Position numbers: made by a program. From NCBI RefSeq assembly GCF_016903815.1, contig NZ_CP069973.1: a DNA stretch of 64,000 nucleotides. One strand, 5' to 3'. This document shows, piece after piece, positions 6,001-12,000 of the stretch. Numbering within the stretch: the stretch's first letter is position 1; each line of letters opens with the position of its first letter. Origin of the DNA: Escherichia coli (lineage in GTDB: Bacteria > Pseudomonadota > Gammaproteobacteria > Enterobacterales > Enterobacteriaceae).

Positions 6001-9000
6001 TATTGCACCAGTAAATCTTAACCACCGATAAGGAGCAAAGTATGCGATTAGCAAGTCGTTTTGGTTATGCTGCAAACCAGATACGCCGTGACCGTCCGCT
6101 GACACATGAAGAACTGATACGCCATGTACCCAGTATTTTTGGGGAAGACCGGCACACCTCCCGCAGTGAACGGTATGCGTACATTCCCACCATTACCGTC
6201 CTGGAAAATCTGCAGCGGGAAGGCTTTCAGCCGTTCTTCGCCTGCCAGACCCGTGTGCGCGACCCGGGCCGCCGGGGATACACAAAACACATGCTGCGTC
6301 TGCGGCGGGCCGGAGAGATAAACGGAGAACATGTCCCTGAAATTATTCTGCTCAACTCTCATGACGGTACCTCCAGCTACCAGATGCTGCCGGGTTACTT
6401 CAGGTTCGTCTGCCAGAACGGGTGCGTCTGTGGCCAGTCTCTGGGGGAAGTGCGTGTTCCACACCGGGGAAATGTAGTGGAGAAAGTTATCGAAGGGGCT
6501 TACGAGGTGGTGGGCGTGTTTGACCGGATAGAGGAGAAGCGTGATGCCATGCAGTCGCTGGTCCTGCCGCCACCGGCACGCCAGGCGCTGGCACAGGCGG
6601 CACTGACTTACCGTTATGGTGACGAACATCAGCCCGTCACCACCGCCGACATTCTGACGCCGCGACGCCGGGAGGATTACGGTAAGGACCTGTGGAGCGC
6701 ATATCAGACCATCCAGGAGAATATGCTGAAAGGCGGGATTTCCGGTCGCAGTGCAAAAGGAAAACGTATCCATATCCGGGCCATTCACAGCATTGATACC
6801 GACATTAAGCTCAATCGCGCATTGTGGGTGATGGCAGAAACGATGCTGGAGAGCCTGCGCTGATGCCGTTTCCCTGAGTGAGGGAATCATTCAGCTTTCG
6901 TTCCTGAAAAACACACATTTATTTGTTATTTAAGGAGTTATCTCATGAAAACCGTTTCTCAGAATACCCCCACAATTTATTCAGCTACAACACCAGAGAA
7001 TAATCCGCCTCAGTTGGTTGCCAGCCTCGTCCCTGATGAACAGCGCATCAGCTTCTGGCCGCAGCATTTTGGCCTCATTCCACAGTGGGTGACCCTGGAG
7101 CCCCGTGTCTTCGGCTGGATGGACCGTCTGTGCGAAGACTACTGCGGTGGTATCTGGAATCTGTACACCCTGAACAACGGCGGGGCATTTATGGCACCCG
7201 AACCGGATGACGATGATGACGAAACATGGGTACTGTTCAATGCCATGAACGGTAACCGCGCTGAAATGAGCCCGGAAGCCGCCGGTATTGCCGCCTGTCT
7301 GATGACGTACAGTCATCATGCCTGTCGTATGGAGAATTATGCCATGACGGTCCATTATTACCGGTTGCGGGATTACGCCCTGCAGCATCCGGAATGCAGC
7401 GCCATTATGCGCATCATCGACTGAATGGAGAGAAGCACAATGCAACAACTTTCCTTTCTGCCCGGAGAGATGACGCCCGGCGAGCGCAGCCTCATTCAAC
7501 GGGCCCTGAAAACCCTGGACCGCCATCTTCATGAACCCGGCGTGGCCTTCACCTCCACCCGTGCAGCACGGGAATGGCTGATTCTGAACATGGCGGGACT
7601 GGAGCGTGAAGAATTCCGGGTGCTGTATCTGAACAACCAGAATCAGCTGATTGCCGGTGAAACCCTCTTCACCGGCACCATCAACCGCACGGAAGTCCAT
7701 CCCCGGGAAGTGATTAAACGCGCCCTGTACCACAATGCCGCTGCCGTGGTACTGGCACACAATCACCCGTCCGGTGAAGTCACACCCAGTAAGGCAGACC
7801 GGCTTATCACCGAACGTCTGGTACAGGCACTGGGCCTGGTGGATATCCGGGTGCCGGACCATCTGATAGTCGGTGGCAACCAGGTTTTCTCCTTTGCCGA
7901 ACATGGTCTGCTTTAACCCGTCACAACCACATCACACCTGTTTTCACTTTTATCTTCTGTCTTCAGAGGTATCCCATTATGAAAATTATCACCCGTGGTG
8001 AAGCCATGCGTATTCACCAACAACATCCGACATCCCGTCTTTTTCCGTTCTGTACCGGTAAATACCGCTGGCACGGCAGTGCTGAAGCGTATACCGGTCG
8101 TGAAGTGCAGGATATTCCCGGTGTGCTGGCCGTGTTTGCTGAACGCCGTAAGGACAGTTTTGGTCCGTATGTCCGGCTGATGAGCGTCACCCTGAACTGA
8201 GTGGGAATTCTGATGAGCAGAATTATCGCCACTACCGGACCATTCTTAGCCGATTTTCTGTAAGGATTTTATCGTGTCAGACACACTCCCCGGGACAACA
8301 CTTCCCGACGACAATCACGACCGCCCCTGGTGGGGGCTGCCCTGCACCGTGACGCCCTGTTTCGGGGCACGTCTGGTGCAGGAGGGTAACCGGTTGCATT
8401 ACCTTGCCGACCGCGCCGGTATCAGAGGCCTGTTCAGCGATGCAGATGCGTACCACCTGGACCAGGCCTTTCCGCTGCTGATGAAACAACTGGAACTCAT
8501 GCTCACCAGCGGTGAACTGAATCCCCGCCATCAGCATACCGTCACGCTGTATGCAAAAGGGCTGACCTGCAAAGCCGATACCCTCAGCAGTTGTGGTTAC
8601 GTTTATCTGGCTGTTTATCCGACGCCCGAAATGAAAAATTAACTCTCCAGAATAGCCTTCTGCTACGGCCTGGTGTTTTCACCACGCCACTTTTCCATTT
8701 TTATATCTGCATATCAGGAAAATCTTCAGTATGAAAACATTACCTGTATTACCCGGGCAGGCGGCCAGTTCTCGCCCGTCTCCTGTTGAAATCTGGCAGA
8801 TACTGCTGTCCCGACTGCTGGACCAGCACTATGGCCTCACACTGAATGACACACCTTTTGCCGATGAACGTGTGATTGAGCAGCATATTGAGGCAGGCAT
8901 TTCACTGTGTGATGCGGTGAACTTTCTCGTGGAAAAATACGCGCTGGTGCTACCGACCAGCCGGGATTCAGCGCCTGTACCCGCTCTCAGTTAATAAACA

Positions 9001-12000
9001 GCATCGATATCCTCCGGGCTCGCAGGGCGACCGGCCTGATGACCCGCGACAATTACAGAACGGTAAATAACATTACCCTGGGTAAGTATCCGGAGGCGAA
9101 ATGATGACACTGGAAGCCGACAGCGTTAACGTACAGGCGCTGGATATGGGGCACATTGTCGTTGACATTGATGGTGTTAATATCACTGAACTGATTAATA
9201 AGGCCGCTGAAAACGGTTATTCACTCCGCGTGGTGGATGACCGTGACTCTACCGAAACACCGGCAACTTATGCCAGCCCTCACCAGTTGCTGTAAGACAA
9301 TGCAGTGATGCAGGGTATAGTGCCATTAACCACAGAAACAGCACTGTTGTCCTGTATTAAGCAGGCAAGAGAAGATGTCCTTACCCTGCGCCATCTGCAG
9401 CTTCTGCACCAGAACCGGTGAATCTCACTCAACAGGCTTCATTTCCCCTGACGCCAGCCTGAATACAGCTGGCGTTTTCATTTATAAACAGAAAGGAAAA
9501 CCGATAATAATGGAATGGACGCCCCGACCATGAAGCAACGGTAGGATATTACTGATAAACCTTCCAGTGGAGGTGCGTTATGGCCGTTTTAACGATTAGC
9601 ATTGACCTGACAAAAAATGAATTCCAAATCCACGGTCTGGGTAGGAACAGAAAAATCTAAGCTCAGAAAACGGATTAAAGTAAGCGTCAACGGAGCACCG
9701 TATTGACGCTTATTTATTGGTGAGAACTACGTTCCATGGCAGGAGTTCGTCAACACGGTTGGAGGGCCATTCCGGCAGTATGCTCAGAATATGGCGCAGA
9801 TACGCTTCCGGATCGATACCGTTCAGACGGCAGGTGCCTGCTTTTCCGGCAACAAGCAGGAATCTCAGCGCTGAAGCAGGAATTAGAGGTAAAAACGCCC
9901 TACCGGGCCATGAATCACCCGGTCATTGGAGTAGTAACCAAAGCAGATTTAGCCAGCATGGAACAAATATCTTTGGTGAAAAGTTGGTTACGGGAAGCTG
10001 GAGCGCACAACGTGTTAGTAACCAGTGCAGTTAATAACAATGGAGTTACAGAACTTTTTGCCTTGCTGCATACAGAAGAAGGCTGTTGTTAATTTCGATT
10101 GGTTCTCAGATGAGAATGATGACGGTGATACACAGATAAGAATCAATGAGCAATGAGGGTTGCCGGGCAACCCTCATTGAATAAAACGGGAATTACTTCG
10201 CTTCGCCGTTTTTCATTTCGCCCATAGCTTTCAGCTTTTTGGAGATATCGCGGCGTTCTTTGGAGAGCTCGGCATTTTTGATGATGTAATCGTCAACGCG
10301 ATCTTCATAGTCACCTTTCATGCTGGCGATGATGCCCTGGATTGCTTCAACGCTCATCCCTGGCTTGATGTAATCGCTCAGGTTGTCCAGCAACAGGACG
10401 CGCTTCTGGTTGTCACGGATCTTTTTCTCAACGTCCTGAATTTCACGTTGCAGTTTGTTCTTACGACGGAACAGACGAACAAATTCCAGTACGTCCTGGA
10501 ATGAAGGCTTGGTAGTTTCCATTTTTATACCCCTGATAATGTGAGAGTCGGATTCGTTTAAGCAACCGCTATTCGTTAGGGCCAACATTACTCATAGCTG
10601 CCGCAGATGACAATGCTTTTATCCCTTTTCACTATCATACCCTTTATCCTTGCTGAATCGAAGCAGCAGCAAGATGATTCTGAAGTTCAGGAATTATTTG
10701 CGCAAGGCCCGGCAAATCAGATTCGATAGCAACTCAAGCTGATGTGCCGTTTCCATGTTCAGCCACACATAACCATAGATTGGTGTTTCCACAACCTTCA
10801 GGTCATGGTGGTTATCGAGCAACTGACGCAGCTCTTCCACAGCATCGTTCAATTTTTCCGTATTGGCAAAAACCGGCTGCGGATTACCTTCGTACAGCGC
10901 ATGAACAAGGCTCAGCAGTATTTGCTGCATCATGTGCTGGGTATCACGAAGTTTTTGCGCGTTCAATAACACGAAATGGCTGGGGCGCGTGGCCCAGTAC
11001 GCATTGATTTGCAACTCCAGCATACAAACCAGATTGCGGTTAATGGTCTGGATACCTTCATATATCGATTTGGGAATACGGGTTTCTTTGCTGGCGGGCG
11101 CAATCAGCCCACGCATTTTCACGGCATCGGTCAGCAGTTTTTGTAGATGGCTTTCCAGACGTGGGCGTTCGAGTAAGTTCGGTGAGAATGCAGATTGATA
11201 GACCCGATTATACTCGGTCAGACTTTTCGCCAGTTGAATGCGCCAGTGGATGAACGCCCGTTGTGGCCAGATACCGGTAAACAACATTGCCAGTAAAGAG
11301 CCGAGGATCACATCGCCGCTTCGCCATAACGCCGTATCAATTTCACCTGTCGGGGAACCCACAACAATTGCCAGCGTCACCCCAATCAATAATCCTTGAT
11401 ACGGTTTCTTGCCCAGCGCCAGCCAACCGCAAAGAAACATCGCCGCCGCGCACCAGACTAACATCAGCGGTAACGAAATTAACTCCAGTTGCAGAGCGAT
11501 AAGACCTAAAATCGACCCCAACACCGTACCGCCAATACGTTCGAAGGCACGAGGGACAACGTTCCCCCAGAACGAGATTGGCCCCATAATCACCACCATG
11601 GTGACCAGCGGCCAGGTGCTTTCCGGGATAGTAAACAGGCGGATAATGAGAAAAGTGAGCAGGAATGCCAGCGCGACCCGAGTACCATGCACAATGCGGT
11701 AATGGCGGTATACCCGGATTTCAAACGGGCTTAATGACTTATCGGCACGCACTCAGAAACTCCGTAATGAAGATGAAAAGCGCTCATAACACATCTGTCG
11801 GCCAGAAGGCGCGCCTCTGAGTTATCCGACGGACATACCGGGAACAGTGTAATTTCCCGGCAGGAGCGAAAAATTTGAAAGGCGTATCTTACTCTTTTCG
11901 CTTTCAAAAAAAGAGTGGTCTTCGCGTTAACACACCGCCCTGAGATGAATTAGTGATGTTTTGGCTGCACCGCAACATACATTTCGATATCCCAGTACCC

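Follow-up and report, generated by a model that had tools for sequence, protein, structure and literature searches.

A widespread single-base deletion in cbtA beside an intact cbeA in a CP4-44-like island of Escherichia coli

The cbeA-cbtA (yeeU-yeeV) pair of the CP4-44 prophage remnant in Escherichia coli K-12 is a type IV toxin-antitoxin locus whose toxin, CbtA, acts on both FtsZ and MreB, and these two activities are separable, as R15C abolishes the contact with MreB and F65S the contact with FtsZ (Heller et al., 2017; PMC5624674). The action of the antitoxin CbeA extends to two paralogous toxins, YkfI and YpjF, which it neutralises (PMC5371832), and reportedly to other inhibitors of FtsZ (PMC5624674); an apparent orphan homologue of CbeA, YagB, is present in the CP4-6 element of K-12 (PMC5371832). 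The locus considered here lies in a stretch of 64,000 nucleotides of E. coli (assembly GCF_016903815.1, contig NZ_CP069973.1), called the window from here on and the reference for all positions, in which a cbtA gene of the same type (8731-9104, plus strand) has lost a single G next to an intact cbeA (8274-8642, plus strand). Taking all the evidence together, this is very probably a genuine and long-established frameshift allele of CP4-44 type, produced by the loss of that one base, which has spread and has been copied between islands.

The deletion in cbtA

Along the 469 aligned columns that run from the stop of cbeA to the start of yeeW, the window and K-12 MG1655 disagree in only one, a gap in place of a G between 8950 and 8951, and this is the sole difference between the two cbtA genes (b2005 in K-12), which measure 374 nucleotides (nt) in the window and 375 in K-12. 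At this point K-12 reads GGTGCGTACC and the window GGTGC-TACC, the segment GTGCTACC (8947-8954) spanning the site of the loss. The missing base belonged to codon 74 (CGT, Arg), and hence the R74 codon itself is destroyed. The resulting open reading frame (8731-8994) encodes 87 amino acids, of which residues 1-73 are those of K-12 CbtA and the remaining 14 are out of frame, ending in a TAA at 8992-8994. The original frame is found again from 8952, where a stranded remnant of codons 75-124 and the stop (8952-9104) reads TDQPGF...KYPEAK in complete agreement with K-12 residues 75-124, and its TGA (9102-9104) overlaps the ATG of yeeW (9101-9103) in the form ATGA. A previous sequence-only reading of the window had proposed this same arrangement, that is, a 1-bp deletion, 73 codons of CbtA followed by 14 foreign ones, a downstream frame that continues as CbtA, and an old stop that overlaps yeeW, and the alignment to K-12 bears it out on each of these points.

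The truncated product is still recognised as a member of the family, with 128.7 bits against Pfam CbtA_toxin (PF06755), where the gathering cut-off is 25, and it covers model positions 1-73 of 112, which leaves the domain incomplete. The relatives found at 69-96% identity in Escherichia, Klebsiella, Citrobacter, Enterobacter, Serratia and Raoultella are 124-126 amino acids long, and in an alignment of 42 sequences 17 of the 41 invariant columns fall beyond residue 73, including R74 and the SIDILRAR block; the invariant residues that are past the frameshift and no longer in frame are R74, D76, G79, S86, L88, S91-R98, G102, L103, Y109 and G118. Because of this length in the relatives and of these invariant residues beyond the break, the long form is the ancestral one, and the short form, judging from the family alignment, is derived and does not represent the conserved wild type, despite its frequency. 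By its reading frame, the allele cannot provide the full-length dual FtsZ/MreB toxin, and a tblastn search of the 64-kb window revealed no second cbtA-like sequence.

Frequency, origin and spread of the allele

The population set comprised 5,426 complete E. coli genomes, searched by exact matching with an 80-nt query that carries the deletion and with an 81-nt query repaired according to K-12. The deletion allele is present in 1,486 of these genomes (about 27%), and the intact allele gave 1,776 records in the same collection. The segment 8600-9300 of the window (701 nt) is 100% identical in all 40 of the matches listed, which include O157:H7, O145, O104:H4 and many clinical strains. At the protein level, the exact 87-amino-acid product occurs on at least 1000 contigs of the protein collection, under the names CbtA/YeeV, and in terms of index blocks it accounts for 11,870 as against 34,506 for the intact protein of 124 amino acids. 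A scan of metagenomes, by a pattern that either allele would satisfy, gave 9 matches with the deletion and 99 bearing the G; from these metagenome loci only the allele classes and one cbeA change (A>G at 8499) were kept, and the per-position polymorphism counts were discarded owing to indels and paralogous copies. The allele has also been labelled by the Prokaryotic Genome Annotation Pipeline (PGAP), as a frameshifted cbtA in O157:H7 PV15-279 (ECpv15279_RS14500) and as "cbtA, frameshifted" at exactly 8731-9104 in strain 222 (A9P13_RS16565), a strain that shows 100% identity to positions 1-25000 of the window. Literature searches found no specific description of the cbtA frameshift. The allele is, in short, common, long established and already annotated in public records, and is not new.

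All ten of the contexts retrieved for the exact product correspond to one island at one chromosomal site, with a shared layout formed by a patatin-like gene, two hypothetical genes, DUF932, antirestriction, yeeS, yeeT, cbeA, the truncated cbtA and yeeW, and then tmaR-yeeA-sbmC-dacD; some copies of the island are disrupted by insertion sequences (IS), either on their left edge or beyond yeeW, and the intact cbtA allele is also found in this layout. Between 7464 and 9295 the identity of the deletion sequences to the window is 99.67% or more in 12 cases out of 12, and the low-diversity haplotype to which they belong also holds intact genes, those of K-12, L016, L019 and L020, while other intact haplotypes diverge by up to 5%. 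Since all 12 carriers are on this one K-12-like haplotype, the comparison points to a single mutational origin of the deletion at the window locus. The lost G was flanked by C and T, outside any base run, and the only run of five or more identical bases in cbtA is an A5 at 8933, so that recurrent slippage would be unlikely; an inspection of the deletion site by eye together with a run scan gave no convincing quasi-palindrome or slippage mechanism.

The deletion is, however, not confined to this site in the chromosome. A variant of the truncated product with D40N (P0003; 775 index blocks) was located in four chromosome-scale assemblies (L133-L136), the class of assembly on which the second locus is based, at another chromosomal site and in a paralogous island that is 92-94% identical to that of the window. 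This island carries an Ag43-like autotransporter, DUF905, DUF932, antirestriction, RadC, DUF987, CbeA, the truncated CbtA, DUF5983 and DUF4942. In L133, L135 and L136 (with the truncated cbtA at 6001-6264 in each) the gsp genes for type II secretion follow it directly; in L134, the fourth assembly, it ends in a CadC-like gene instead. At the yeeA locus, a further sequence (L137) has a haplotype of intermediate type. The divergent carriers agree with the window in the immediate surroundings of the deletion (about 8857-9000) and differ from it farther out, and as such a window-identical core within divergent flanks is the pattern that paralogous P4-like islands would leave on undergoing homologous recombination or gene conversion, the deletion has probably spread between islands through recombination. 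Mosaic genes with the deletion in three short metagenome contigs (L067, L114 and L117) were not used as evidence, as they may be assembly chimeras; the form in L117 had no match of at least 99% among the complete genomes. Another metagenome contig (L087, 1106-1686) has a deletion-bearing cbtA that passes into unrelated sequence at about codon 65, either a rearrangement or an assembly artefact.

These observations bear on three other explanations of the allele. That the deletion could be a recurrent hotspot, with independent origins at different loci, might be thought from its presence in islands only 83-97% identical to that of the window, and yet the lost G lay between C and T and in no repeat, every divergent carrier returns to the window sequence at about 8857-9000 and departs from it farther out, as a conversion tract would, and the haplotype of L137 at the yeeA locus is an intermediate one; recurrence is accordingly given a small probability. 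Smaller still, indeed close to nil, is the probability that the genome really has the G and that its absence is a sequencing or assembly error, a proposal with nothing behind it except that single-base indel errors are possible in general, and faced with an identical allele that spans many lineages and 1,486 complete genomes, and that is also in thousands of drafts and in 9 metagenome contigs, at a site that is not a homopolymer. Equally hard to credit is a recoding programmed into the gene, whether through a -1 shift of the ribosome or through slippage in transcription, that would restore a low level of full-length toxin: across 82 nt (8913-8994) a shift of -1 would bring the two frames back together, and the A5 at 8933 falls within this overlap, but the overlap has neither a slippery heptamer of the type X XXY YYZ nor any run longer than five, and the existence of the intact allele on the same haplotype indicates a mutation and not a designed recoding site.

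The truncated product and the persistence of cbeA

Another possibility to be weighed is that the 87-residue protein is an active, attenuated toxin that, through the N-terminal helical unit with F65, has kept the inhibition of FtsZ and the filamentation and has lost the MreB arm; cbeA would then still have its partner and not be orphaned. Several points favour it, and most of them also weigh against a toxin that has simply decayed. Both R15, for the contact with MreB, and F65, for that with FtsZ, are among the retained residues 1-73. In an AlphaFold2 model of K-12 CbtA, residues 12-74 form three helices of fair confidence and confidence is low for residues 75-124, with the break at the boundary between the two, although a model this weak overall (predicted local distance difference test, pLDDT, 64; predicted template modelling score, pTM, 0.48) serves neither for a fold search nor for firm conclusions, and makes the coincidence weak evidence; no solved structure of CbtA was found. 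A C-terminally truncated YeeV is said, in the abstract of a 2011 study by Tan and colleagues, to elongate cells. The frequency of the allele, found in about 27% of the complete genomes, also counts in favour of an attenuated toxin. The polymorphism counts are too few to measure selection on cbtA or on cbeA, and the loss of toxicity is itself a conclusion drawn from the sequence.

Against the attenuated toxin, a third of the conserved domain is gone and with it 17 invariant residues, a nonsense tail of 14 residues has been added, PGAP calls the gene a pseudogene, and the widespread D40N variant replaces a residue at a position invariant in the 42-sequence alignment, a change that hints at relaxed constraint. 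On balance an attenuated toxin seems unlikely. It is slightly more doubtful that the stump should retain any meaningful activity, and just as doubtful is the more elaborate proposal in which the 87-residue product is stable and binds FtsZ through the F65 surface, as a natural FtsZ-only toxin that would induce filaments and be held in check by CbeA, with the spread between islands as the mark of selection for attenuation. As to the view of the sequence-only reading that the toxin is inactivated, the frameshift stands, and the inactivation is to be put more cautiously, as a probable outcome for a stump that keeps R15, F65 and the modelled N-terminal helices.

The antitoxin gene, on the other hand, is complete, as had been supposed. 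It runs from a GTG start at 8274 to 8642, directly upstream of cbtA and separated from it by a spacer of 88 nt (8643-8730, plus strand), the same as in K-12 and of a length described previously (PMC5371832), and it encodes 122 amino acids that match Pfam CbeA_antitoxin (PF06154) with 178.5 bits over model positions 1-100 of 101 and the solved YeeU structure 2H28 across residues 1-122 (E 5.4e-84). With respect to K-12 CbeA it has one substitution, G108 in place of D108. The broken cbtA beside an intact cbeA, in a decaying prophage, is thus as first described, the prophage being a CP4-44-like island.

The further suggestion that cbeA might have persisted on account of an independent role is not required. 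The deletion carriers differ by about 0.05-0.3% in this region, and at such a divergence a second disabling change within the 369 nt of cbeA would not be expected; yeeT and yeeW are intact in all the carriers sampled, and the neighbouring genes in most of them. The cbeA changes seen in deletion carriers at the window locus are G49D, L62P and the A>G at 8499 (classed as non-synonymous), with no synonymous change seen among the carriers retrieved there. L62P, which is potentially disruptive, occurs next to the frameshifted cbtA in two O157:H7 sequences, L001 (PV15-279) and L012 (equivalent window position 8458), and 1-bp frameshifts of cbeA occur in L004 and L007, the latter in an assembly that has indels in several other genes. 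These changes, in tiny numbers, give no sign of any special constraint on cbeA, and its intactness would be no evidence for an independent role, since low divergence suffices to account for it. In L004 (GCA_036681845.1, 4544-4912) the deleted base is near the start of cbeA (equivalent window position 8288), and both genes of the pair appear to be broken. A role of CbeA in cross-protection against paralogous toxins is plausible; in strain 222 three further places match a cbtA-centred query, and these copies may be intact.

The explanation preferred here, a genuine frameshift allele that has spread, would then have had the following course. On a K-12-like haplotype, codon 74 would have lost one G, leaving a product without the C-terminal 51 residues, which amount to roughly one third of the conserved CbtA_toxin domain, so that from the allele no full-length dual toxin would be made; the allele would have risen to high frequency in E. 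coli, and homologous recombination would have copied it between paralogous P4-like islands. In the meantime cbeA and the neighbouring genes would have stayed intact, as too little time or divergence would have accumulated to break them, and CbeA may still serve against the paralogous toxins of the CbtA family encoded elsewhere in the genome. In itself this is the routine decay of a toxin within the remains of a cryptic prophage, one that RefSeq already flags. It does mean that the widely studied pathogenic lineages O157:H7, O104:H4 and O145 are without the full-length CbtA of CP4-44, and that results obtained with K-12 CbtA do not transfer directly to them; it also makes available a ready-made natural truncation of the C-terminus for dividing the FtsZ and MreB activities along CbtA.

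Setting of the locus and comparison with known systems

The pair belongs to the conserved right arm of a P4-like island, which is made up, all on the plus strand, of a DUF932 gene (6042-6863), an antirestriction gene (6945-7424), both called by PGAP and Pfam, yeeS (7425-7916, with a RadC-like JAB domain and a PGAP start at 7440), yeeT (DUF987, 7979-8200, the same as in K-12), cbeA, cbtA and yeeW (9101-9295, with a DUF5983 N-terminal domain and again the same as in K-12). The new stop of cbtA leaves 106 nt (8995-9100) untranslated ahead of yeeW, and the translational coupling of the two genes through ATGA, as in K-12, would therefore be lost. A scan for promoters and terminators gave nothing that exceeded the expectation from shuffled sequence. 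The right end of the island is debris, according to the PGAP annotation of identical sequence, with fragments of DUF957 (9329-9421), of a transposase (9710-9847, minus strand) and of an EutP/PduV-like gene (9910-10092).

A PADLOC scan of the island genes returned only marginal matches. At the left of the island there is a block of three genes (211-4576) for a dynamin-family protein, an RdcB-family protein and a patatin-like phospholipase, also marginal in PADLOC (LeoBC 8.6e-5; phospholipase effector 1e-4). Some 11 kb downstream of cbtA, an intact yefM-yoeB type II toxin-antitoxin pair occupies 20372-20874 (minus strand), from the annotation of identical sequence. Farther on, an IS3-family element (29094-30403) splits wzzB, the gene for O-antigen chain length, on the minus strand (fragments 28484-29170 and 30355-30810); it has an orfA (30023-30349), an orfB (29136-30026) and inverted ends of 25 nt (29094-29118 and 30379-30403), its junctions share 5 bp, and strain 222, 100% identical apart from this, does not have it. 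The O-antigen cluster (about 33500-46500) has wzx and wzy of the O102 family, by the annotation of the identical sequence of strain 222, and a copy of IS200C lies between ugd and gnd.

Among the systems already described, the closest is the K-12 locus itself (b2004/b2005), with which the window shares yeeS-yeeT-cbeA-cbtA-yeeW and then tmaR-yeeA-sbmC-dacD, at 99.8% identity over 7464-9295 and with the spacer, yeeT and yeeW identical. K-12 differs in having a full codon 74, a CbtA of 124 amino acids where the window has 87, and D108 in CbeA where the window has G108; and upstream of yeeS, where the window has the DUF932 and antirestriction genes, CP4-44 has flu-yeeR. The PGAP pseudogenes of strain 222 and PV15-279 are the same allele as that of the window, with no difference. 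With respect to the engineered R15C and F65S forms, whose separable FtsZ and MreB activities depend on contact residues that this allele keeps, and to the C-terminally truncated YeeV of the 2011 study, the natural allele drops 51 residues and gains a tail of 14. Finally, the situation recalls YagB of CP4-6 in K-12, YacB of Shigella and the parE pseudogene of C. crescentus, in which the antitoxin outlives an absent or broken partner toxin, as it does here (PMC5371832; PMC7354431), with the difference that in the window the remnant of the toxin gene is nearly complete, one base having been lost, and its 73 N-terminal codons can still be translated.

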